Virus record (IMG/VR): IMGVR_UViG_3300048060_000061 | Span: 1 to 64,000 of that record | Length of the DNA stretch: 64,000 bases | DNA from: a virus | Taxonomy: Duplodnaviria > Caudoviricetes | Strand: one strand, 5' to 3' | Part shown: positions 4,256-55,133 of the stretch, piece by piece | How positions within the stretch are numbered: position 1 is the stretch's first letter | Layout: every line of letters begins with the position of its first letter | Position numbers and translations under genes: made by a program | Notes under the pieces: generated by a model | The model's input: only the letters and a program-made list of their open reading frames with translations | Database searches by the model: none | Told to the model about the DNA's origin: nothing

Positions 4256-4770
4256 GTAATGGGCAAGGAATTTTACCAATCTCAATGTATGATGCTGAAA
4301 TCCTTGAAGAAATGGTAAGCAACGAAATAATAATTAATATGCTTCCAAAGAAACGATTTCCAATTAAATTGAAAGTAAAAACAGATGGTAGGGGCAAGCC
4401 TGCTTTCAGAAATTTAGAAACCGAAATTGATTGTAAATTACCACGGTTACCCAAGCAAAACAAGAACGTGCGAGACATGAACAGATGAGATTATTTTGAA
4501 TGTTTAACATAATAGGAGAGACCTATGGGTAATATAACAAAGCAAGAGGTGTGCAAGACTTGTAAATTTTGGACTAAGAGAGACGGAGAACTGAACTTAA
4601 ATTTTGGCAAATGTATCCACCCTGGCACACACAGCTGGGTACGTGGTCAATCCTTTGAGCCACCGGATTATTTTGGATGCATTAATTGGTTTGGCAATAA
4701 TAAATTATTTATTGAACCTTCAGATGAAAAGGTACAAAGTGTAACTGAATAGGAGAAACCTATAAGCAAT

Positions 4771-12302: not shown

Positions 12303-13250
12303 ATGAGCAAAGAAGTTTATATTTATGGATTGTATGATCCAGAAAGTAGGGAGTTAAGATATATAGGTAAGACAGTTAACCTTAATAACCGATTGTGGTA
12401 TCATCTTAGAGATGCCAAAGGAGGTCAAAGAACACACAAGGCAGCGTGGATAAGAAAATTATTGCGTCAAGGATTAGAGCCTATTATATCACCAATTTGG
12501 GAGACAACAGAAGAAGGATGGCAGGAAGATGAAAAAGCCTGTATTGCTCAGGCGTTAAGCGAAGGGGCTAATCTGACAAATTTAACAAAGGGTGGCGACG
12601 GGATTATAGGTTATAGCCATTCTGACGAGACTAAAGAAAAGATCAGAAAATACAATCTTGATTCTGGTAGAATCCCTCCTAATTGGAAAGGGCGAAAACA
12701 ATCACCTGAACATATCGCCAAGCGGGTTGAGACACGCCGAAAAAACGATACTTATGCACATACTGCTGAGACTAAAGAAAAAATAAGTGCCAATCGCAAG
12801 GGTAAGGCAATGGGCAATACTAATACTTTGGGTATGAAACATACTGATAAGTGGAAGAAGGCTCAAAGTAAAAGATCGTCAGGTGAGAATAATGCATTTT
12901 ATGGCAAGAAACATTCTGATGAAACTAAGAGAAAAATCAGTGCTGCTAAAAAGGGGACCAAGGCTTCAGAAGAAACCAAGGCAAAGTTAAGCGCAGCGCA
13001 GCAAAAGCGCATACGAGATAAGCAGGCAAAACATATAGCCCAAATCGCTATCCCTTACGATGAACTGATTACCATGTCGGATGATCCGCAGATAAACGAG
13101 ATACGCCGTCTATATGTGGAAGGAATGACCAAAAAAGAGATAACTGAGCATCTTGGTTATAAGAGTTATGGCGGCGGTAGGTTTTATACGAAGATGAGTA
13201 AAGCGATAAAGAGTATACCTATTACAGGGAAGGGGAATGATGAAACTTAA
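12303..13250 (+). CDS. GIY-YIG homing endonuclease with NUMOD3 repeats
   Basis: VYIYGL...RYIGKT, NLTKGGDG, repeated HSDETKEKI/HTAETKEKI/HSDETKRKI. Confidence 0.9.
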   Translation: MSKEVYIYGLYDPESRELRYIGKTVNLNNRLWYHLRDAKGGQRTHKAAWIRKLLRQGLEPIISPIWETTEEGWQEDEKACIAQALSEGANLTNLTKGGDGIIGYSHSDETKEKIRKYNLDSGRIPPNWKGRKQSPEHIAKRVETRRKNDTYAHTAETKEKISANRKGKAMGNTNTLGMKHTDKWKKAQSKRSSGENNAFYGKKHSDETKRKISAAKKGTKASEETKAKLSAAQQKRIRDKQAKHIAQIAIPYDELITMSDDPQINEIRRLYVEGMTKKEITEHLGYKSYGGGRFYTKMSKAIKSIPITGKGNDET

Positions 13251-13809
13251 AACGCAAAAACAGATAAAAACTAAAGATGATATTTTTGAATTAGGCATTA
13301 TTGATTTCAACCGACTTAATGGGGTTTTTCAAAATCCAAATGATGCCTTGAATACTATATTTAGCTGGTACGAATTAGGTGCAATTGTATCGATAATTGA
13401 TTGCTCTGATATCTGGGGGGAAGTCAAGACACGTAATGACTTTCCAGGATGGAAACATGTTGGAACCCATGTAGAAGTGGGAAAAAAATATTGGGACTTT
13501 TTTTGGGCAAATTTTGAAGGTTTAGAGAATACATGGCTACAATTTTCTGATAGTCCAGACTTTCAAGGGGCTATTGAAGGAAAAACGTTTTGGGGTGATA
13601 TAGGTCAAGTTTCTGCAAGCGCTTTTGCTATATCTCAAAAGCAAATGGATAAAGGTTCATTATGGATAACTATAATAGATAATGGCAATACACATGTATT
13701 GATTGAATCACTGGTTAATATAGTAGATATATTTGGTAATATGTGTTTTGGAGAAGATAAGCCCATACGGTATTCATATCAATTATCTATGTTCGGAGAT
13801 ATAGAATGA
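13237..13809 (+). CDS. Hypothetical protein
   Basis: 190-aa ORF coupled to both neighbours; no recognised motif. Confidence 0.5.
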   Translation: MMKLKTQKQIKTKDDIFELGIIDFNRLNGVFQNPNDALNTIFSWYELGAIVSIIDCSDIWGEVKTRNDFPGWKHVGTHVEVGKKYWDFFWANFEGLENTWLQFSDSPDFQGAIEGKTFWGDIGQVSASAFAISQKQMDKGSLWITIIDNGNTHVLIESLVNIVDIFGNMCFGEDKPIRYSYQLSMFGDIE

Positions 13810-14639
13810 CCCCTTACTATGACCACAACGGGATCGCCATCTATTTGGGAGATTGCCTGGAGATTATGCCTCAGTTGGGCTTGGTAGATATGGTTTTTAC
13901 TGATCCACCTTATGGTCATAATAATAACAATAATGGTGATTTAATATCTCGCCGGGAAGCTGCTTTAGGTACAGGGGATTATATAGCGGAAAGAGATGAT
14001 AGGCCGATTAAAAATGATGGTATTGAAGCTAATAAACTATTCAAGGATTTTCTGAATGGGGCAAAAAAGCTATTAAAACCTGGCGCTTGTTGTTGTTGTG
14101 GTGGTGGTGGTGGCCCTGATCCGCAATTTGCAAGATGGTCTTTATGGATAGATGAAATGTTAGAATTCAAGCAAATGATAGTTTGGGATAAAGGACCTAT
14201 AGGAATGGGCTGGCATTATCGCCGTAGCTATGAGACTGTTTTGGTAGGACAAAAACCAGGAGCAAAATGCTATTGGTTTGATAATAGTAAAACCATAGAA
14301 AATATTATTCGACCAGGAAACGGTATAGCCAAGATTATACCTAATAAAGAGCAACATCCTACCCAAAAGCCTGTGGAATTAGCCTCTTATTTTATCAGGC
14401 TTCATACACAAAAAGGAATGATTGTCCTTGATCCGTTTATGGGTTCCGGCACAACCCTAGTTGCCGCCCAAAACGAAGGCCGCCGAGCAGTCGGTATAGA
14501 ACTCTCCGAAGAATATGTAAAAATGGCTATAGACCGCCTTCGCCAACCCAGCTTCTTCTCAATCCCCAACAGTCCCAAGGTGAAAGCAGCGATAGAACAG
14601 CCAACCCTCTTTGACACCGACCAAGGCGGTGACGAATGA
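13806..14639 (+). CDS. DNA N6-adenine/N4-cytosine methyltransferase (beta class)
   Basis: GDCLE, TDPPY, HPTQKP, DPFMGSGTT, GIELS in beta-class order. Confidence 0.9.
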   Translation: MTPYYDHNGIAIYLGDCLEIMPQLGLVDMVFTDPPYGHNNNNNGDLISRREAALGTGDYIAERDDRPIKNDGIEANKLFKDFLNGAKKLLKPGACCCCGGGGGPDPQFARWSLWIDEMLEFKQMIVWDKGPIGMGWHYRRSYETVLVGQKPGAKCYWFDNSKTIENIIRPGNGIAKIIPNKEQHPTQKPVELASYFIRLHTQKGMIVLDPFMGSGTTLVAAQNEGRRAVGIELSEEYVKMAIDRLRQPSFFSIPNSPKVKAAIEQPTLFDTDQGGDE

Positions 14640-14696
14640 ACGATCTTCCTTTAAATAATATTGAAGTATGTTTTGTTGACTGGTTTGTAAAATTCA

Positions 14697-15137
14697 TTGA
14701 AAACACTTAGAATATTATTTAAAAGAAAGGGCAGAGGCTCTACTATGGCAAAAAGACCATTTTTTCTTTACGATGATGATTTTATTACACAGCAAGATTT
14801 GCAAGACAGACTGTCAGACCTCGAAAATTCTCTTTGCCATAAAATGAATGAACTTCGTGACAGATTTTTTATAAAAATCACTTCCCTAGAAGAAGAAAAC
14901 AAAATATTCAAGAAGCGTATTCATAGCCTTGAAAATATTATCGAACCTGATGAAACAGATGTCTATAACATCAACAGACGACTTGAATTATTAGCGCAAA
15001 AAATTGCAAACTTGGAGAGTAAGCAGAATAAACGATGGCAGAGAATGTCTTCCAAACCTGATGTAATCGTTCTTTTCGTAATTGCAGCCATTATAATATT
15101 AGGAAGGATAGCTTTTCTTTGGCTTGGGATATCATAG
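14697..15137 (+). CDS. Coiled-coil protein with C-terminal TM anchor
   Basis: Heptad pattern followed by VIVLFVIAAIIILG. Confidence 0.5.
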   Translation: MKTLRILFKRKGRGSTMAKRPFFLYDDDFITQQDLQDRLSDLENSLCHKMNELRDRFFIKITSLEEENKIFKKRIHSLENIIEPDETDVYNINRRLELLAQKIANLESKQNKRWQRMSSKPDVIVLFVIAAIIILGRIAFLWLGIS

Positions 15138-15786
15138 GATTTGTAATCAAAATGGAAATAAGTATTAAGTCAGAAAAGTTCAGAGGTGACGAATGAAAAT
15201 AAAACCCCGGCCCGAAAAGAATTTCACAGATTTTGATGATTGGTTAAAATCGCACAGAAAAAGAGATGAAAATGTAATAAAAGGCGAAAAAATACGTGAA
15301 GAAATACGTGAAGAAATCAAAGATAAACTCTCTCGACATTTTGGAGAGACGGAAGATCAAACTTGGTGTAAGTGTGACACTTGCACCTTAATAAGACTAA
15401 AAGCAGAAGGTGAAGGTACAATTAACAGCTTGGCACTTATTGGACTTCAGTTTTTACTTGGTCAGAATTTTAATGGAGCGGCGGCACTATATTATCACAC
15501 ATTCTATAAGGAAAGACAAGGTGATATAGACCAAGGTGGTGACGAATGACCCCTTTCGAAATATGGCAACAATCAGAGTGCGATATTCTTGGCATCACGA
15601 TAGACGAACATAACAAAATGATCGAAATAGCCAGTCAGATGGAGGCCGTAGGTTTCCCTGATGCGTATGACAAAATGAAATCTGCAACGAATGTGTTTTC
15701 ACCAAATAAATCTGTAAAGCAAGCCGGCCACGCCTGCTCTGCGAGGCAAAAAATACGGCAGACGTAACGCCTCCTAACTAGATATA

Positions 15787-15822
15787 GGGGCGGCCCATAT
15801 TAACTTGGCCGCCCCGCTTTTA
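15787..15822. terminator. Intrinsic terminator between converging units
   Basis: GGGGCGGCC...GGCCGCCCC hairpin followed by TTTT. Confidence 0.7.
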
Positions 15823-15854: not shown

Positions 15855-15979
15855 CGGTCCACCCCCACGCCTGTGGGGAAAACTGGTAAAGCTAAGATGT
15901 CAGGTGGTCTAACAACGGTCCACCCCCACGCTTGTGGGGAAAACGAAAGCTGCCATCTGTTCGGTCCACTCCCATACGC
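15855..15979 (-). CRISPR. Mini-array 1 (type I-E-like repeat) downstream of tnpB
   Basis: Two 29-nt repeats GTTTTCCCCACA(A/G)GCGTGGGGGTGGACCG (15855-15883, 15916-15944), a 32-nt spacer, and a half-repeat (15962-15979) with a 17-nt spacer. Confidence 0.9.
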
Positions 15980-16070
15980 TATAATATTAAATTGTGAAGG
16001 TTTCGCTGTCAACCGAGCCAATGCAAGAAGGTTATCGACAGCGCAGTCACCCGCGAACCTACGGGCGATT
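15962..16070 (-). ncRNA. omegaRNA/tracr-like scaffold copy 1, overlapping the tnpB stop codon
   Basis: Homologous to 17804-17924 and 23670-23790 with compensatory stem changes; overlap with the tnpB 3' end is typical of omegaRNA. Confidence 0.8.
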
Positions 16071-17333
16071 ATAATCAGGATTTACGAAAAGTCGTATCCC
16101 CTCGTTTCTCAGGTTAATAGCTGCGTTCAGATCACGTTCATTCTGTTGTCCGCAGCCTTCGCAAGTCCATATCCTGTCACTCAAAGTTAGGTCAAGTTTT
16201 TTTTCTCCACATCCTGAACACAACTTAGATGAGGGGAACCACTGATCTACTATACCAATAGTACCATTATAAAAATCAGCTTTATATTCAAATTGCCGTT
16301 TCATTTCGTAAAAGCCAGCATCAGAAATAGCTTTGGCTAATTTATGGTTTTTTAGCATCCCGCCAACATTTAAGTCTTCGAGAATGATAAGGCCATAATT
16401 CTTTGTGACGTTTGCTGTCAATTGATGTTGAGCGTTGCGCCGTAGATTTTTAATCCTGGTATGTAGATTTTTAATTTTGTGCTCAGTTCGTAGCATCTGG
16501 TTAGACTGATTTTTCGGACGTTTGCCTTTTTTCACTGTGCCATCTTCATTGTAGCATCCTGGATTATTAGACCGGCGTTGTCGGTCTAATTTCCGTTGCA
16601 ATCGCCTTAACTGAGCCTGTGCTTTATAATATGCTTTAGGATTTTCAATAGTTTCGCTATCGCTAGTAACGGCAAGATATTTAATCCCCAAGTCGACTCC
16701 TACGATTTCAGAACTTGGAATAATATCAGGCTTTTCAAACTTAACCTGAATTGAGGCCCAAAACCATTGACCGTCATAAGAGAAGGTAGCGTTCATTATC
16801 TTGCCCTGAAAACGCAATTCTTCGCACATTCTGATATAACCAACTTTGGTATTATAGCGAATATGTTGACCGTCTAATTTCAGACAGATATTAGTAGCCC
16901 GGAAGCTATTATGGTTTCGTTTGCTGCGCCAATTTAACCAGCCTGATTGACGGTAATCCTTGCGAGGTTTGTCATTATGACTATTGATTTTGACCTTACC
17001 CTTACGAATGTCAAAGTATCGTTGCAATCCCTTTTGCAAGTCACCAAAAGCCTCTTGAGTAGCACTGGCAGTTTTATCCTTCACCCAATCTGGTTTAATT
17101 TTATTGTACAGGGCTTTGAGGCTCTTTTGCTCGGTCACTTTATCATTAACAGTAATTGATGTGAATTTGTAATTTTCACCAGTTTCACGATAGGTTATTC
17201 GGTTTAGATCATACTCAAAATCGAGTATCTCTTTGCCGAAATTCCAGGCATTACGGGCGGCTGCAAAGGCCCTCATTAGGTGTTGCTTTTGCTTTTCGGT
17301 TGGTCTAAGTCTAATTTTGTGTGATCTTATCAT
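16059..17333 (-). CDS. tnpB: TnpB-family RNA-guided nuclease, CRISPR-flanked, no transposase partner
   Basis: N-terminal HKIRLRPT...ARNAWN; RuvC I GVDLG, RuvC II LEDL, Zn finger CSGC/CEGC, Ruv[13 protein letters not shown]. Confidence 0.92.
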
Positions 17334-17369
17334 TTTATTAGAATGTAAAGTAATTTCAGTCGGTTTATT

Positions 17370-17803
17370 CGGTCCACTCCTACGCTTGTAAGAAAAACGG
17401 ACAAACTTGTGTTTTAAGAAAAGGGCGGTCCACCCTCACGCTTGTGGGGAAAACCGTTACGCCTATTGCTACCACAGATGCCACTCCGGTCCACCCCCAC
17501 GCTTGTGGGGAAAACCCAAACACAGCGCAAGCTGCCACAAGTTGATCCGGTCCACCCCCACGCCTGTGGGGAAAACAAACATTATGACGGTCCACCCCCA
17601 CGCTTGTGGGGAAAACTCATCACAACGTTTGCAATCGGTCATATCGCACCGGTCCACCCCCACGCTTGTGGGGAAAACGTTGCCCTGAGATTTGTTGTTT
17701 TGAATAGGCGTACGGTCCACCCCCACGCTTGTGGGGAAAACTCATCACAACGTTTGCAATCGGTCATATCGCACCGGTCCACCCCCACGCTTGTGGGGAA
17801 AAC
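17370..17803 (-). CRISPR. Mini-array 2 (8 repeats, 7 spacers) upstream of tnpB
   Basis: Repeats start at 17370 (degenerate), 17426, 17487, 17548, 17588, 17650, 17713, 17775; spacers 27, 32, 32, 11, 33, 34, 33 nt. Confidence 0.97.
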
Positions 17804-17924
17804 ACTACTAACGTGTAACATTCACCCACACGCTATAATATTAAATTGTGAAGGTTTGACAGACAACCAAGCCAACGCTCTAGGGTTCACGTCTGTCCAG
17901 TCACCGGCGGACCTGCCGGCGATT
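17804..17924 (-). ncRNA. Scaffold copy 2 / array leader
   Basis: Hairpin CGCCGGC-AGGTCC-GCCGGTG, stem GACAGAC..AACC/GGTT..GTCTGTC, anti-repeat ACCTTCAC. Confidence 0.8.
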
Positions 17925-18063
17925 TGTTTTCTAATTCCAATCGGTTTAACTCAGCAACGACCAGCCGGTGAACTATTAACACCTGCGGTTCCTTGGTGAG
18001 TTTTTTGATTTGTCTGATTACTTCTAGGGTATCAACCCATAATTTTGTTGATTCTCGATCCAT
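17887..18063 (-). CDS. Small ribbon-helix-helix-like regulator (58 aa, not in ORF track)
   Basis: MDRESTKLWVDTLEVIRQIKKLTKEPQVLIVHRLVVAELNRLELE...: strand-helix-helix pattern; follows promoter at 18095-18122. Confidence 0.6.
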   Translation of the reverse strand: MDRESTKLWVDTLEVIRQIKKLTKEPQVLIVHRLVVAELNRLELENKSPAGPPVTGQT

Positions 18064-18094
18064 AAATCATATTTATCACAAACTGTTTTCTGCC

Positions 18095-18122
18095 ATTGTA
18101 CCACTTTTGTACCCTTTGTCAA
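18095..18122 (-). promoter_or_regulatory. Promoter of the RHH-scaffold-array-tnpB unit
   Basis: TTGACA-16-TACAAT with TGn extension; contains GGTACAA twice. Confidence 0.65.
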
Positions 18123-18288: not shown

Positions 18289-19890
18289 CTATTCTATCCT
18301 GTCAGCCTTTACAAAATCGCTTATCACTTGCGGCGTAGATGTATCAAACCCTATAACATCCAGCATACCACTATCTTCAGGGTCAGCAACACTAAATCCA
18401 CTGGGAGTCATCCCCACTACAACAAGCTTGGATGGAATTTCCATTTGATGGCGATATTGTTGCAGCGCTTGTACAGGATGGATATTACCAGCCCAGGTTT
18501 CATTATCCGTATAGACAATAAAAGTATCTATTTCAATTCCGTTTTGTAGCGCATACAACATTGGTAAAGCGCAATCGGTCCGCCCCCACGGAATATCATA
18601 TATCTGTTGGATAACATCATCTAATCGTTGTCGGGCGGATAAAGTGACCGGGATCATTTGATGACTAAAAGCCGTAATTATATGATGTGGTTCCATTCTG
18701 GCTGTAATCATAGCCATTGCTCCAGTAGCTTCGCGAGGTGTAATAGGCATCCCGGCGATAGTATTCCAACTCATTGAAGCCGAAACATCAAGAGCTAGCA
18801 TTGTCCGTTTATTAGTTATTTCGGTATTACCAAATGACAAATAGAAAGCCTCATCTAATGCGTTAATAATTTCAGTAATCGGTGACCAAGATAATCTGCC
18901 TTTCATTCCGTGACCCTGGGCGTAAATTTTTAGAGCTACCAAGATAGCCAAGGGATGAAGTCGCGACTTTTTGATATAGGCTTGATCAGTTAATTTACCG
19001 ATAATAAGGCTTGTTTCGTTCCCCATCGGTTTTAATAATCCCACCCGTGTCATTTTCCCTAAGTTTCGTATTAACGCCGTAAGAGGCATTTTTTGTAGAA
19101 GGGCGCTCCAAATGGCAGGCTCGTTAAGCCATTTGGTCGGGATCATTTCGCGAGTAAGACCTTCATCTAAAATAAGGGAAACTATAGCCAATTTGTTTGT
19201 GGCAACCTTGGCATGCTCAAAGGCGGCAATTAAATCTATATCGCCATATTTTGCTTCTGGGTTACCGACAATCCATTTATATAGGTCATTTCGCATATCT
19301 GCGTCCTTAGAATTATCCGGTATTGGATGGCTGAGGCGTAAAGCATCTCGATGACTCCATCCGTCGCGTTGCTGGTACTTAATTACTTGATAGGCCAGTT
19401 TATCGACAGGCATATAATTGTACCAATTAGCTACAGCCCGGCGTAAGCCTCGTCCCCAACCCCGAAAGCCCTCAACGTATTCAAGGAAATGGAAAAGGTG
19501 AGTACCAATGCGGGCCACTTGCGGAAGTACATCAAAGGCCGCCCGGCGCGTTTCAATATCTCCTATTCCAGCACATATAGCTAACGTAAACAAAGCTGGA
19601 TCGTTCTTGGGCGCTCGACCACCTTTACTGACTTCAACGACTTTAGCAACAACTTGTGGACCGTTATTTTTGATACAGCGTACCACTGCCTGCGCGTTAT
19701 CAATTGTTAATTTTCGTTCATTGGCATAGTAGGTCCCCCCCTCAGATCCCAGGACAAGAAAACGGTCCAGGCGTATCCAGTCATCGACTGCAAAGACATA
19801 CCCCCCGGCCGAATTTTTGACCATTTGTTTATCTGGAATTGCTTGGGTTTGTGGAGTTTGTCTGATTGAAAAATGCTGTCTGTATTTCAT
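18289..19890 (-). CDS. rsr: Ro60 / TROVE-vWA RNA-binding protein
   Basis: NSAGGYVF, RFLVLGSEGGTYY, GWGRGLRRAV, KYQQRDGWSHRD, MPLTALIRNLGKMT, vWA DVSASM, YTDNET, GFD; start placed at ATG 19890 after GGAG RBS. Confidence 0.95.
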   Translation of the reverse strand: MKYRQHFSIRQTPQTQAIPDKQMVKNSAGGYVFAVDDWIRLDRFLVLGSEGGTYYANERKLTIDNAQAVVRCIKNNGPQVVAKVVEVSKGGRAPKNDPALFTLAICAGIGDIETRRAAFDVLPQVARIGTHLFHFLEYVEGFRGWGRGLRRAVANWYNYMPVDKLAYQVIKYQQRDGWSHRDALRLSHPIPDNSKDADMRNDLYKWIVGNPEAKYGDIDLIAAFEHAKVATNKLAIVSLILDEGLTREMIPTKWLNEPAIWSALLQKMPLTALIRNLGKMTRVGLLKPMGNETSLIIGKLTDQAYIKKSRLHPLAILVALKIYAQGHGMKGRLSWSPITEIINALDEAFYLSFGNTEITNKRTMLALDVSASMSWNTIAGMPITPREATGAMAMITARMEPHHIITAFSHQMIPVTLSARQRLDDVIQQIYDIPWGRTDCALPMLYALQNGIEIDTFIVYTDNETWAGNIHPVQALQQYRHQMEIPSKLVVVGMTPSGFSVADPEDSGMLDVIGFDTSTPQVISDFVKADRIE

Positions 19891-19926
19891 AAATATCTCC
19901 TCTGGATAGTAATAAATTTGAACAAC

Positions 19927-19958
19927 AAAAAGAAGCCGGGAAATCCCGGCTTCTTTTT
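19927..19958. terminator. Bidirectional hairpin between Y RNAs and Ro60
   Basis: AAAAAGAAGCCGGG-AAAT-CCCGGCTTCTTTTT. Confidence 0.75.
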
Positions 19959-19964
19959 GTAATA

Positions 19965-20089
19965 TAGGCAAATTATTGAAATTGGGGCTTTTAGTGCTCT
20001 ACCACTGAGCTACCCGCCTTGGTAGGCGGGGCTGGATTTGAACCAACGACCACTCTCTTTCAAGGAGATAACCCAACATCGTCCGGCCC
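19965..20089 (-). ncRNA. yrlA: YrlA-like Y RNA with circularly permuted tRNA-like domain
   Basis: 5' GGGCCGGA and 3' AATTTGCC Ro-binding stem; T arm GTTGG-TTCAAAT-CCAGC, closed acceptor CCCGCC/GGCGGG, D arm GCTC-AGTGGTA-GAGC; adjacent to Ro60. Confidence 0.85.
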
Positions 20090-23669: not shown

Positions 23670-23790
23670 AATCGCCCGTAGGTTCGCGGGTGACTGGACA
23701 GACGTGAACCTTCTCGCATTAGCTCGGTTGTCTGTCAAACTTTCACAATTTAATATTTAAGCGTGTGGGTGAATGTTACACGTTAGTAGT
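23670..23790 (+). ncRNA. Scaffold copy 3 (orphan, no adjacent nuclease)
   Basis: CGCCCGT-AGGTTC-GCGGGTG hairpin, GACAGAC/GTCTGTC stem, ACTTTCAC anti-repeat; homologous to copies 1 and 2. Confidence 0.8.
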
Positions 23791-23944
23791 GTTTTCCCCA
23801 CAGGCGTGGGGGTGGACCGCGTTTGTCAAGGACTGCTACCAATTGGGACGTCAGTTTTCCCCACAGGCGTGGGGGTGGACCGACATTGCCGACGTGTACG
23901 GGATTAGTTTTATTGGTTTTCCCCACAGGCGTGGGGGTGGACCG
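23791..23944 (+). CRISPR. Mini-array 3 (3 repeats, 2 spacers)
   Basis: GTTTTCCCCACAGGCGTGGGGGTGGACCG at 23791, 23854, 23916; spacers 34 and 33 nt. Confidence 0.95.
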
Positions 23945-53106: not shown

Positions 53107-53143
53107 TCGAACCGGGACTGTCTGCATTTTAAGTGCAGTGCCT
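53107..53143 (-). repeat. Exact 37-nt copy of tRNA-Leu(TAA) segment 52914-52950
   Basis: TCGAACCGGGACTGTCTGCATTTTAAGTGCAGTGCCT occurs at both positions. Confidence 0.95.
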
Positions 53144-53152
53144 GTTCTTTTT

Positions 53153-53426
53153 ACTTACTCACAAACGCCCGTGGGGAAACCATGCAACACCGGGCCTGAT
53201 TTCGGTTTAAAATCACTGATCCTCCAAACGCCCGTGGGGAAACCGACCTCCACAACCCACGATAACCGTTGAACCCACTGATCCTCCAAACGCCCGTGGG
53301 GAAACCGAATTGATCCTTATCAAAACAAACATCCCTGATCCTCCAAACGCCCGTGGGGAAACCTGTGAAGTGGGTTCGCGCATGTTCAACCGCGAACCTG
53401 ATCCTCCAAACGCCCGTGGGGAAACC
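53153..53426 (-). CRISPR. Mini-array 4 (5 repeats, 4 spacers) downstream of the C2c9/Cas12n-like gene
   Basis: 29-nt GGTTTCCCCACGGGCGTTTGGAGGATCAG at 53398, 53335, 53278, 53216 and degenerate 53153; spacers 34, 28, 33, 34 nt. Confidence 0.95.
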
Positions 53427-53526
53427 CCTGAAAAGAGCAAATAAAAAGGTAATTCGCTCACTGTTAATATCAGCCGAATAATCTTGGCTGCACGTAACTA
53501 GTGTCTTGGTTGAGCAGTCCCAACCG
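53427..53526 (-). ncRNA. Predicted omega/tracr-like RNA overlapping the 3' end of the nuclease gene
   Basis: Hairpin GGTTGGG-ACTG-CTCAACC, stems CACT.GTTA/TAAC.AGTG and CAGCC/GGCTG, then CCTTT..TGCTC complementary to repeat GGGCG..GGAGG. Confidence 0.55.
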
Positions 53527-54849
53527 TGCAGACTTTTCCTCTAGCCTGCGTTCAAATTGCCCGGTTCGTGCTAATAAAATTACCTTAACATCTTTATAAG
53601 GCGTAAATAACCGTATCTCAGGATCATTCAGCCTGGCCAAGATATTCCGAGCAGCATTTGTATCCGCTTGCAATACCTTCCCGTCGAAACAGTAAAACCT
53701 ATCCCCATTACGATGCCCCAATAGGATACCGTGCCGGGAATCAGTTTGCGAGGTATATGCAGCATTAACTGTTTTAATCGTAGAACCTCTACGATTAGAT
53801 ACCGATTCTATTGCCTCAGCTATAGCACCCTTCGTCCAACCAGCAAGACGGCGGTTTTGATTCTTGCCGTATGACTTGCCATTTATCGGGTTCGTTAAAT
53901 CTTCGGTGACTATAATGTCGGCCTTGTCAACTACTGAATGAGCCGCCTTGAAAATCTTGTCTCTTACATTGGCTGTATGTATACGCTTGCGCTCATCCAG
54001 CTTTTTACGCCCCAAGTTGTTTTTTAGAATATTATCACACTTATGGGGCTTCGCTTCCGCTATTGCCTTTAGCTTGTTTCTACGTTGATACTTGGTTTTA
54101 AGATAGTCTGATTCCTTACTTAACAATTCTCCTAGTCCTTCACCGTGGTGTTTCCCATCTGAATCTACAAAGACCTCAGTATAACCTTTATCAATTCCTA
54201 TAGTCCCATCACCACTGGGTCGAGTAACGCAAACCTTTTCCTCATCAATAGCATAATGTACTTCAATACGTCCATTACGTAGGATCAACCGAAGTGTTCC
54301 CGATGGAGTATTGTTGCTATTCAAAGGGATAGCTATGCGCTTCCCAGATTCCAAGCTCATTACCTTAAGCCAAATCTTACCACCCTTTTCAAAAGTCGTA
54401 TAGCATTGGGAATCCAGTACAATCTGATTATCAACCTTGGTTTTACCGTGCTTAAAATATTTACGCATCATACGACGCAAATAACTATCTTTCAACCAAT
54501 TGTCATATTTAAGCAGAGTATAAAGGCGTTTACGCTCGTCATTATCATCAGTCCTTTGGCGTATTGCCTTTCGCACTTTGACTTTGGCAGCTTCACGGTA
54601 AGTAACTATATCTGCGAAAGTATCTCTTAAGGTTTCATTCCGAAGACGGGCGGCAATATTAAAGTGCCTACCTTCGGCGGTCCATTGATTTCTTATTTGA
54701 CGGTGTGTTAATTCTACACCTTGGACTGAACCAAAGCGTTGCCAGACTTCAGCCCGTAGTTTGCCCAATCGACTAGCCATTTCAGTTAATTGAGCTAACT
54801 TTCCTTCATTAAGATTTTGGCTGTAGATAATCCGAGTAACTTTACTCAT
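53470..54849 (-). CDS. cas12n: C2c9/Cas12n (type V-U4)-like TnpB-lineage RNA-guided nuclease
   Basis: N-terminus KVTRIIYS..LNEGK...EVWQRFGS as I recall for the C2c9 clade; RuvC GIDKGY, TEDL, ADTNAARN; degenerate Zn finger; adjacent array. Confidence 0.7.
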   Translation of the reverse strand: MSKVTRIIYSQNLNEGKLAQLTEMASRLGKLRAEVWQRFGSVQGVELTHRQIRNQWTAEGRHFNIAARLRNETLRDTFADIVTYREAAKVKVRKAIRQRTDDNDERKRLYTLLKYDNWLKDSYLRRMMRKYFKHGKTKVDNQIVLDSQCYTTFEKGGKIWLKVMSLESGKRIAIPLNSNNTPSGTLRLILRNGRIEVHYAIDEEKVCVTRPSGDGTIGIDKGYTEVFVDSDGKHHGEGLGELLSKESDYLKTKYQRRNKLKAIAEAKPHKCDNILKNNLGRKKLDERKRIHTANVRDKIFKAAHSVVDKADIIVTEDLTNPINGKSYGKNQNRRLAGWTKGAIAEAIESVSNRRGSTIKTVNAAYTSQTDSRHGILLGHRNGDRFYCFDGKVLQADTNAARNILARLNDPEIRLFTPYKDVKVILLARTGQFERRLEEKSARLGLLNQDTSYVQPRLFG

Positions 54850-54856
54850 CAGATAC

Positions 54857-55048
54857 TTATACTACCTTGTCTTTCTTTTTTACCGTAGGTGGATTGACCT
54901 GAATATCACCGCTAATTCCCAACAGAATCAGAGCTTCAACATATGATTGCCAGCGAATAAAGCCAGATTTTTTAGCAATATCTATAAGTTTTTCTTTGAA
55001 ATCTTTTTCAATCCACATTTGGAGGTTGATTTGATTTTCACGGGTCAT
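54857..55048 (-). CDS. Ribbon-helix-helix-like regulator
   Basis: INLQMWIEKDFKEKLIDIAKKSGFIRWQSYVEALI; GAGGAG RBS; promoter TTGACA-17-TATATT at 55100-55072. Confidence 0.6.
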   Translation of the reverse strand: MTRENQINLQMWIEKDFKEKLIDIAKKSGFIRWQSYVEALILLGISGDIQVNPPTVKKKDKVV

Positions 55049-55133
55049 ATTTTTGCTCCTCAATCATATTCAATATACACCTCCTATACAGAATTGTCAA
55101 CTCTGGAATAGATATACTATAATTAAGCAAGAA

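Follow-up and report, generated by a model that had tools for sequence, protein, structure and literature searches.

A phage-borne TnpB whose guide RNA is probably split between an omegaRNA-like scaffold and type I-E-like CRISPR repeats

Several described systems come close to the locus considered here. TranC effectors (Jin et al., Cell 2025;188:6283; LaTranC, PDB 9jfo and 9jfq) use, as outlined in the available accounts (PMC13565253, PMC13639567, bioRxiv 10.64898/2026.03.27.714800), a reRNA that is split into a tracrRNA and a crRNA, and the omegaRNA of ISDra2 TnpB is known to contain a conserved pseudoknot. For Cas12r from the Thermus Lalka phages, the Cas1-Cas2 of the host I-E system has been proposed as the source of spacers (bioRxiv 10.64898/2026.04.20.719267), and plasmid type IV-A systems are reported to use host I-E adaptation in trans (as cited in PMC11656645). 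The origin of the arrays found in TnpB lineages was left open by Altae-Tran et al. 2023, who considered either duplication of an omegaRNA segment or landing of the gene beside an existing array.

The source of our locus is a complete phage genome of 103 kb with terminal repeats, the first 64 kb of which form the window, i.e. the whole stretch of DNA read at first (Table 1). The phage encodes one intact 424-aa TnpB and carries five copies of a structured scaffold of ~105 nt. We read the locus, with a probability of roughly two in three, as a nuclease system of the phage that is RNA-guided, derived from TnpB and type V-like (TranC-like), with a naturally split guide. A sequence-only reading of the window had described repeats, scaffolds and a mini-array, all of which were found where it had placed them. 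The single minus-strand unit that it described does exist, but does not make up the complete system, as more units are present at 23671-23944 and in the part of the genome beyond the window. The proposed unit promoter was borne out, since it matches 11 of the 12 consensus positions in addition to the extended -10 TG and is the top scorer in the region. A terminator had been claimed at the other end; the GC-rich hairpin is indeed there and is likely a two-way terminator common to the converging plus-strand genes, but it is missing from the output of a consensus scan. The upstream gene had been named an RHH gene; no Pfam or PHROGs family matches the 58-aa ORF, so the RHH fold is no more than a plausible guess. 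Small ORFs recur near tnpB in the relatives, and only that of L247 has a match to Arc. An Rfam search of the locus returned no known RNA family.

Table 1. Features of the TnpB locus and of the additional units (window positions unless marked as genome positions).
Feature	Position	Strand	Basis or remark
Sigma-70-type promoter	18095..18122	-	TTGACA, 16-nt spacer, TACAAT, extended -10 TG
58-aa ORF	17887..18063	-	3' end overlaps scaffold hairpin 1
Scaffold U1, array-heading, tracr-like	17816..17923	-	nhmmer E 1.3e-30
Leader-proximal element, conserved, ending ..TAGT directly before repeat 1	17804..17815	-	sequence comparison
CRISPR array 1: 8 repeats of 29 nt, 7 spacers	17370..17803	-	repeat analysis
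tnpB, 424 aa	16059..17333	-	Pfam domains; RuvC triad and CxxC..CxxC zinc finger
Scaffold U2, at tnpB 3' end (native omegaRNA position)	15962..16069	-	E 1.6e-31
17-nt segment, guide position of native omegaRNA	15945..15961	-	no second copy in genome
Mini-array: 2 full repeats, one 32-nt spacer	15855..15944	-	repeat analysis
GC-rich hairpin closing the unit	15786..15818	-	read directly in sequence
Scaffold U3, array-heading	23671..23778	+	E 1.5e-32; chimera of U1 and U2 types
CRISPR array 3: 3 repeats, 2 spacers	23791..23944	+	repeat analysis
Further scaffold+array unit	genome 88274-88672	+	scaffold and repeat search
Stand-alone single guide	genome 89149-89280		scaffold search

The tnpB product matches HTH_OrfB_IS605, OrfB_IS605 and Cas12f1-like_TNB (PF12323, PF01385, PF07282), and the HTH/WED-REC, split RuvC and zinc-finger (TNB) domains that define a TnpB/OMEGA nuclease are all present. 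The RuvC triad, previously read as intact, consists of D214, E319 and D401, which align with D191, E278 and D361 of ISDra2; neither the triad nor the zinc finger varies among 31 homologues. By sequence, canonical TnpB is the nearest type, with E 4.6e-39 for ISDra2 compared with 1.9e-23 for LaTranC and ~1e-7 for Cas12f. From IMG/VR and the JGI metagenome collection, only relatives of 37% identity or less were recovered, and the cellular relatives (37–46% identity) belong to multi-copy, IS-like elements. The nearness to canonical TnpB and these cellular relatives, together with the persistence of single-guide copies (see below), are what would be seen if the locus were a selfish TnpB element, that is an IS200/IS605-type remnant without tnpA. 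In such a case the 3' end of the omegaRNA, being similar to an I-E repeat, would have been an accidental substrate for host Cas1-Cas2, leading to non-functional “neo-arrays”, and TnpB would serve only for homing or maintenance of its own locus. We find this improbable, since tnpB (tnpB-A) is single-copy in the genome, in contrast to multi-copy TnpB/OMEGA transposons, and the genome holds no transposase: searches of all 103 kb gave zero matches for Y1 TnpA (PF01797) and serine recombinase (PF00239), in agreement with the earlier observation that tnpA is absent. Moreover, the array-heading units apparently have their own promoters (18122-18095 was scored, the others were recognised by eye in the flanks), and both the linkage and the covariation described below speak against it. 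The cas genes are likewise absent, as had been read, with no Cas1, Cas6e or Cas7e found by searches of the whole phage genome, whereas these genes of the I-E operon are present in candidate host genomes.

The repeats had been assigned to type I-E from their geometry, and this assignment is strengthened by comparison with cellular arrays. The 29-nt repeat is identical at 28 of 29 positions to that of L266 and at 27 of 29 to that of L256, and both of these arrays abut casE-cas1 in genomes of Anaerolineae (Chloroflexota). The phage arrays have a 29-nt stem-loop repeat with a ..CCG end, 32–33-nt spacers and a degenerate terminal repeat, as type I-E arrays do, and the typical spacer length is that of the Anaerolineae hosts. 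In array 1, the spacers measure 33, 34, 33, 11, 32, 32 and 27 nt, spacer 3 being a duplicate of spacer 1, and the last (8th) repeat is the degenerate one. Host I-E leaders end in AGT, AGG or AGA, much as the leader-proximal element does. An Anaerolineae-type host is suggested by repeat identity only.

The scaffold is a structured RNA by comparative evidence: in the alignment, 98.8% of cells pair (28–40% in slid controls), double changes occur at 9 pairs, and stem 2 covaries at 7/7 pairs. Besides hairpin 1, whose loop is AGGTCC, U1 contains stem 2, an inner stem that is conserved and a terminal hairpin; it lacks a pseudoknot strand of its own. U2, which is 79% identical to U1 over 100 nt, overlaps the tnpB stop codon and has the organisation of an omegaRNA, since it begins inside the 3' end of the gene, ends with GGACCG followed by 17 nt, and has a fold supported by covariation. 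Its pseudoknot strand is retained within the 3' half of a repeat (15979-15962), so that the scaffold is followed first by half a repeat, then by 17 nt and finally by the two full repeats of the mini-array. The pseudoknot of the ISDra2 omegaRNA is closed by the guide-adjacent strand, which is the arrangement proposed here. Four of the five scaffolds head CRISPR arrays; single guides are represented by the fifth copy and, in part, by the copy behind tnpB. These single-guide scaffolds (behind tnpB and at genome 89149) have their own guide-proximal GGACCG and then a fixed guide, whereas the remaining three, each heading an array, have lost the GGACCG strand. At the site where single-guide copies retain GGACCG, GAACTG or GGGCCG, array-heading copies have GAATG.. 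instead. The scaffold search recovered all five copies in the units of this genome and none at other genome sites, and the scaffold is confined to loci of close homologues, being absent from 160 distant-TnpB loci and 120 host loci. A scaffold pattern search in IMG/VR gave chance matches only, and other IMG/VR contigs with arrays of similar repeats had neither scaffold nor TnpB in the stretches examined. The ancestry of the scaffold is not traceable, because cellular TnpB relatives of 40–46% identity carry an unrelated downstream RNA.

The complementarities on which the idea of a split guide was originally based, namely loop AGGTCC (or AGGTTC) with GGACC and scaffold ACCTTCAC with repeat GTGGGGGT, are real and hold across the units. 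The pseudoknot helix is paired at 5/5 positions in all 11 units, and the 8-nt anti-repeat at 8/8 in 10 of them, so that 13/13 possible pairs form in 10 of 11. The relative L376 has two scaffold/array types, and both trans helices are altered compensatorily between them: in unit 1 the loop is changed to AAGTCT, the anti-repeat to ATCCCCGT and the repeat to ..GCGGGGATAGACTG. The cognate combination gives 13 pairs (12 Watson-Crick), compared with 10–12 (5–8 Watson-Crick) for the non-cognate ones, and the anti-repeat has no partner in cis within the unit 1 scaffold. These two cognate scaffold/repeat pairs thus amount to a natural compensatory-mutation design. Independent compensatory events in the pseudoknot (L376 unit 1, U1/U4 and a cis case behind tnpB in L009) are few because the commonest loop variant, GGTTC, pairs with GGACC and GAACC alike through wobble. 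The trans pairs and the strand missing from array-heading scaffolds constitute, computationally, the kind of split guide that characterises TranC and type V-U systems.

These observations also bear on whether the arrays are ordinary phage mini-arrays, read by the host I-E Cascade-Cas3 after Cas6e processing and aimed at competing phages, with the scaffold as a leftover or a promoter/leader module and TnpB working on single guides only. That viruses carry mini-arrays to exploit host CRISPR is well established (PMC11656645), and the near identity of the repeats to those of the host, the intact Cas6e hairpin and 8-nt handle, the I-E-like spacer lengths and the lack of cas genes in the phage would all be in accordance with such a use. 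It does not, however, account for the retention of a full structured scaffold, including its compensatory changes, ahead of arrays distant from tnpB, for the specific loss of the pseudoknot strand in array-heading copies, or for the joint change of loop, anti-repeat and repeat in L376 unit 1, where the repeat hairpin is moreover weakened for Cas6e. We therefore regard it as unlikely as the sole function, while the arrays may serve both Cascade and TnpB.

A survey of homologue neighbourhoods had been put forward as a check on the link between scaffold and array, and every close locus with readable DNA retains it. The close homologues are 59–82% identical in TnpB and represent six lineages; the scaffold-array-tnpB linkage is found in 7/7 informative loci, giving the effector-array adjacency of TranC and type V-U, while array-like repeats occur in only 2 of 160 control loci with distant TnpB. 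A scaffold or its remnant precedes all four arrays of the present phage, as well as every array in L009, L010, L245, L246, L247 and L376. These loci look phage-like wherever flanking genes are readable, and the six diverged lineages have the same linkage although their spacers differ, which speaks against accidental neo-arrays. Chance insertion of a TnpB into a phage array was rejected, being contradicted by the conserved linkage and by the scaffold copies distant from the gene. The linkage and the scaffold-repeat covariation are equally left unexplained if the repeat RNAs act mainly as decoys, i.e. as RNA anti-CRISPRs, binding up host Cas6e and Cascade subunits and so blunting host I-E immunity against the phage. 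The ~18 host-type repeats of the four arrays, under what seem to be strong promoters, could serve to titrate Cas6e, and viral single repeat units are known in such a role (PMC11656645), but decoys need neither unique spacers of I-E length nor a TnpB scaffold, and we consider this reading highly improbable.

As linkage, covariation, I-E repeat origin and trans pairing all hold, the split-omegaRNA reading is well supported in silico. The scaffold had been proposed to act as a tracr-like RNA, and the covariation, the trans pairings and the loss of the pseudoknot strand only in array-heading copies all point, computationally, in that direction. In the mechanism we favour, a single TnpB would be served by five scaffold copies, some acting as single guides and others as split ones. 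The 3' part of the repeat would supply the segment that array-heading scaffolds lost: its GGACC would pair with the hairpin 1 loop and so complete the pseudoknot, its GTGGGGGT could pair with ACCTTCAC of the scaffold, and the spacer after the repeat would occupy the TnpB guide position. TnpB would then load the crRNA and cleave DNA. As genes for adaptation and Cas6 are missing from the phage, spacer acquisition would most likely be the work of the host I-E Cas1-Cas2. Host Cas6e may cut the pre-crRNA, and by analogy with E. coli I-E such a cut would leave an 8-nt handle, GUGGACCG, almost exactly the strand missing from array-heading scaffolds. The role of the system is likely conflict with other mobile elements. 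One point against the reading is that the repeats are so near to those of the host that its Cascade could read these arrays as well. A more far-reaching version, which we put forward as tentative, is that of a class 2 TnpB living off class 1: host Cas1-Cas2 would write, Cas6e would cut, and standard I-E crRNAs would dock on the free scaffold solely through pairing of their 8-nt 5' handle with the hairpin 1 loop. As crRNAs from host arrays have the same handle as those of the phage, they might be loaded too, so that the phage nuclease would be steered by host immune memory, and type V arrays could then arise also by capture of class 1 arrays.

The description of the locus as a new system was overstated, since a split omegaRNA is the published principle of TranC and the borrowing of host I-E adaptation has already been proposed for Cas12r. 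As far as the cited TranC accounts go, the likeness extends to a TnpB-sized effector near IS605/IS607 TnpB beside a CRISPR array without cas1 or cas2, to the split between tracr-like scaffold and crRNA with single-guide and array-guide forms together, and to carriage by phages in some cases (CauTranC9). TranC repeats, by the same accounts, are 32–38 nt and of “unknown subtype”, whereas those studied here are 29 nt and near-identical to the host I-E repeat; the arrays here are also several and dispersed, each with a scaffold copy, and the main one is upstream of the gene. LaTranC, the sole TranC compared among ~24 published clades, matches over the RuvC half only, indicating that the present protein is not of its clade. 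ISDra2 TnpB (PDB 8exa, 8bf8, 8h1j) is the closest natural solved relative, with equal size, the same domain set and a scaffold that begins within the 3' end of the ORF, but our locus has no tnpA and no transposon ends, and its scaffold is present in several copies, most of them away from the gene, with CRISPR repeat-spacer units in the guide position.

Cas12r is likewise a phage TnpB-derived effector without adaptation genes, with 32–33 bp spacers and short arrays whose 29-bp repeats have elements in common with the host I-E repeat. It differs in its length (564 aa), in using crRNA alone (no tracr found), in its downstream array and in belonging to a thermophile-specific TnpB branch; the present system, with a 424-aa TnpB, a separate scaffold heading each array and the main array upstream, does not have this organisation, and its repeat is almost identical to that of the host where that of Cas12r is merely similar. 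Cas12f (type V-F) is also a miniature TnpB-derived effector with a tracrRNA carrying an anti-repeat, and some of its loci lack adaptation genes, but the sequence relation is distant (E ~1e-7 to AsCas12f) and its repeats are longer, unrelated and without identity to class 1. Cas12f works as a dimer. Viral mini-arrays (PMC11656645) share the host-identical repeats, the absence of cas genes from the virus and a likely purpose in competition between viruses; in our phage, by contrast, the guide scaffold of a nuclease encoded by the virus itself is joined to each array, with covariation between scaffold and repeat. Type IV-A, as far as it is covered in the source cited above, is similar as a mobile-element effector without adaptation module that depends, by way of compatible repeats, on the Cas1-Cas2 of a co-resident I-E system, but there class 1 borrows from class 1, while here a class 2 effector (TnpB) would borrow class 1 arrays.

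With regard to the two origins left open for arrays in TnpB lineages, the clade would be a concrete example of the capture route, with an array that is unmistakably of the host I-E type grafted onto an omegaRNA at what, by analogy, is the expected Cas6e cut point, and a scaffold that co-evolved with the repeat. It would also illustrate the takeover of class 1 arrays by a class 2 effector dependent on class 1 adaptation and perhaps on class 1 processing. If the far-reaching version above proved true, the locus would directly demonstrate that class 1 capture, and not omegaRNA duplication alone, can give rise to type V arrays. The 424-aa nuclease, the short trans scaffold and the 29-nt repeats are of practical appeal.

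The 34 phage spacers had only self-matches in their own genome and ~370 loci, as did the fixed guides and trailing segments; the spacers of array 1 had zero matches in INPHARED, and three spacers and the tRNA-like guide, used as exact 20-mers, zero in IMG/VR. Among 301 Anaerolineae genomes, the tRNA-like guide likewise had zero matches when 3 or fewer mismatches were allowed. Conversely, 1474 host spacers compared with the phage and its relatives gave only chance matches of 14–19 nt, with no host spacer matching the phage. No protospacer came out of any of these searches, which thus yield neither a TAM nor a target class. In contigs of four sediment DNA runs, the same repeats flank numerous other spacers, which are not assignable to phage or host arrays, so no inference on acquisition polarity can be drawn from them. 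Finally, the viral TnpB lineages L012, L374 and L375, as well as a second nuclease of the same phage, also adjoin I-E-like repeats, and for this reason the association may be general among phages whose hosts bear I-E systems.

Close homologues of the phage TnpB form a family in metagenomes; those with readable DNA lie on contigs that are phage-like at each locus with legible neighbouring genes (identities of 67% for L009, 70% for L010/L011, 80% for L245, 64% for L246, 59% for L247 and 75% for L376). When these neighbourhoods were surveyed for the scaffold-array linkage seen in this phage, it was present at every locus, upstream and/or downstream of tnpB. The spacers all differ between the loci, and tnpA was found in none of them. 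Among distant TnpB relatives (29-37% identity), array-like repeats were found at 2 of 160 loci, one of them a false positive. The best relatives in 301 Anaerolineae genomes (40-46% identical) are IS-like elements in several copies, with RNA downstream that is unrelated to the scaffold. Other viral TnpB lineages, 34-47% identical, also adjoin I-E-like or I-E-derived repeat arrays (L012:4300-4800, L374:2800-3000 and 4310-4420, L375:4320-4460), with scaffolds of unrelated sequence.

The minus-strand order given by the sequence-only reading (promoter, small ORF, scaffold, array, tnpB, scaffold, mini-array, hairpin) agrees with the locus as we read it, and so does the intact RuvC triad, of which D214/E319/D401 align with D191/E278/D361 of ISDra2 TnpB. 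The RHH label of the 58-aa ORF found no support in Pfam or PHROGs. The source virus record (103,196 bp, direct terminal repeats, rated complete), of which the window is the first 64 kb, contains no Y1 transposase, serine recombinase, Cas1, Cas6e or Cas7e, in line with the reported lack of tnpA and cas genes. The single unit described is real, yet it belongs to a larger multi-unit system, as a profile search of the whole record gave exactly five scaffold copies. Array 1 carries an exact 92-nt duplication of repeat-spacer-repeat (17587-17803), which makes spacer 1 identical to spacer 3, and has a 27-nt spacer beside the 11-nt one; its present form reflects recombination or deletion besides acquisition.

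Features of the TnpB-array system and neighbouring genes (window positions unless marked genome)
Feature	Position	Strand	Remarks
Strong promoter	18122-18095	-	11/12 consensus positions plus extended -10
58-aa ORF	18063..17887	-	no family match (Pfam, PHROGs)
Scaffold (U1), ~105 nt	17923-17816	-	followed by 12-nt leader element
Array 1, eight 29-nt repeats	17803-17370	-	last repeat degenerate; one spacer just 11 nt
tnpB, 424 aa	17333..16059	-	three TnpB Pfam domains
Second scaffold copy	16069-15962	-	overlaps tnpB stop codon; 3' end is repeat 3' half, then 17 nt
Mini-array, two full repeats	15944-15855	-	GC-rich hairpin then ends unit
Third scaffold copy	23671-23778	+	heads array of three repeats
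Fourth scaffold copy (U4)	genome 88274-88381	+	heads array of five repeats
Fifth scaffold copy, stand-alone	genome 89149-89251	+	profile match; scaffold and guide 89149-89280 (L372:1150-1281), outside the window
Second TnpB-like gene, 459 aa	53470..54849	-	region 53107-55063; gene together with its own array 53150-54849
Ro60/TROVE RNA-binding protein gene	18289-19971	-	Pfam TROVE and vWA_Ro60; upstream of TnpB unit

According to comparative sequence analysis, the scaffold is a structured RNA. An alignment of thirteen copies, from the phage and five related contigs, supports hairpin 1, stem 2 (7 bp) and a conserved inner stem, with pairing cells at 98.8% compared with 28-40% when the partners are slid. 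Two-sided changes occur at nine pairs, stem 2 covaries at 7/7 pairs, and no shuffle reaches the observed pairing or covariation values; RNAalifold and single-sequence folds give the same structure. In array-heading scaffolds (17809-17835, minus strand), the leader element offers an alternative partner for the terminal hairpin's 3' strand, giving a hairpin flagged as terminator-like, after which comes the U-rich start of repeat 1. This alternative hairpin is retained through base changes in L010 and L247, and may serve as a switch or set free a discrete tracr-like RNA.

Both complementarities proposed between scaffold and repeat were recovered by computation. Five bases of the hairpin-1 loop can pair with the five that precede the repeat's final G in 11/11 scaffold-array units, and in 10 of the 11 a helix can form between ACCTTCAC, the 8-nt segment past stem 2, and GTGGGGGT of the repeat. 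The homologue contig L376 (3456-4040) carries two consecutive units on two different I-E repeat families: unit 1 has the loop AAGTCT, the anti-repeat ATCCCCGT and repeats ending in GCGGGGATAGACTG, while unit 2 has the usual loop AGGTTC, the anti-repeat ATCTTCAC and repeats ending in GTGGGGGTGAACCG. The unit 1 scaffold forms 13 pairs with its own repeat (12 Watson-Crick) and 11-12 with other repeats (7-8 Watson-Crick), and canonical scaffolds form just 10 with the unit 1 repeat (5-7 Watson-Crick). Judged from these pairings, each scaffold suits the repeat of its own unit best, which makes L376 the decisive case for co-variation. Nothing within the unit 1 scaffold can pair with its anti-repeat, so this helix has to be made with a repeat. 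The loop variant GGTCC of U1 and U4 fits only GGACC, which is the repeat of the source phage, and the native copy behind tnpB of L009 has a changed loop (AGCCC) together with a changed guide-proximal strand (GGGCCG). Array-heading copies have GAATG.. where single-guide copies retain GGACCG, GAACTG or GGGCCG, and because of this replacement they would be unable to close the pseudoknot alone. The fifth copy keeps the pseudoknot strand; as its scaffold runs directly into GGACCG and a ~30-nt guide, it is a natural single guide. This guide resembles the T-arm and acceptor 3' strand of a tRNA, with no match among the phage's own tRNAs, in 301 Anaerolineae genomes at up to 3 mismatches, or as an exact 20-mer in IMG/VR.

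The omegaRNA of ISDra2 has a conserved pseudoknot which helps position the guide, and in TranC (transposon-CRISPR intermediate) effectors the reRNA is split into tracrRNA and crRNA. We propose that the scaffold would act as a tracr-like RNA, with the pseudoknot strand provided by the repeat 3' part, which in at least some units would also pair with the anti-repeat, and with the spacer occupying the guide position. Type I-E Cas6e cleaves past the repeat hairpin. In one version of the model, host Cas6e would do so here, giving a crRNA whose handle, GUGGACCG, is the piece missing from array-heading scaffolds, and docking would occur by the pseudoknot alone. In the other, a longer 5' tag would be retained and pair with the anti-repeat, as is needed for L376 unit 1. 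All computational tests applied support, in silico, the split-omegaRNA reading, in which crRNAs would load TnpB through a tracr-like scaffold.

The repeat core was scanned against 185,579 species genomes and gave at least 120 matches, of which 80 were listed, most of them from Chloroflexota (Anaerolineae, Caldilineales, Aggregatilineales). The best arrays among the matches listed are those of L266 (28/29 identical; 45 repeats, in an Anaerolinea thermophila MAG) and L256 (27/29 identical), and both directly abut casE and cas1. Spacer length agrees between the phage clade (32-35 nt, mode 33) and host arrays (mode 32-33), and the last bases of host leaders ahead of repeat 1 tend to be AGT, AGG or AGA, as in the phage leader element. 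By their sequence, the phage repeats are host type I-E repeats; as no host spacer matches the phage, the host is assigned from repeat identity alone. Four observations lead us to infer uptake of spacers via host I-E Cas1-Cas2: the identity of the repeats, the length of the spacers, the degenerate repeat at the distal end and the missing adaptation genes. The system probably serves in conflicts with other mobile elements; no array-spacer target was found in the phage's own genome, in ~370 loci, in INPHARED (array 1) or in IMG/VR (three spacers, exact 20-mers).

A TnpB with a split guide and an array, without cas1/2, follows the same principle as TranC, which comprises ~24 putative clades, a phage one among them; the classification covers this idea with its type V-U* groups. 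Borrowing of host I-E adaptation by a phage type V system has already been proposed for Cas12r from Thermus phages, which is larger, lacks a tracr and has a repeat that merely resembles an I-E repeat (bioRxiv 10.64898/2026.04.20.719267). In sequence the phage TnpB matches ISDra2 TnpB (E 4.6e-39) more strongly than LaTranC (1.9e-23), the TranC protein compared, or Cas12f (~1e-7). Our literature search found neither this clade nor any TranC or TnpB with near-identical class 1 repeats. The feature that sets the present system apart is its I-E graft.

The second TnpB-like nuclease has no meaningful similarity to the first (BLASTP). Directly downstream lies a five-repeat array, whose repeats are I-E-like in the 5' half and remodelled in the 3' half; past its last, truncated repeat is a ~35-nt partial copy of a phage tRNA-Leu (53141-53107 vs 52946-52912). 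This suggests that one phage carries two independent TnpB lineages, both joined to I-E-derived repeats, and linkage to I-E-type repeats may be common among phage TnpBs.

The Ro60/TROVE gene is unusual phage cargo, and inside it 18 nt (18573-18590) are 17/18 identical to the repeat 3' half and flank, which is borderline for chance. On the plus strand, a homing endonuclease, a DNA methyltransferase and a hemolysin-like small protein (12303-15137), ordinary phage accessory genes, converge on the hairpin that ends the TnpB unit.
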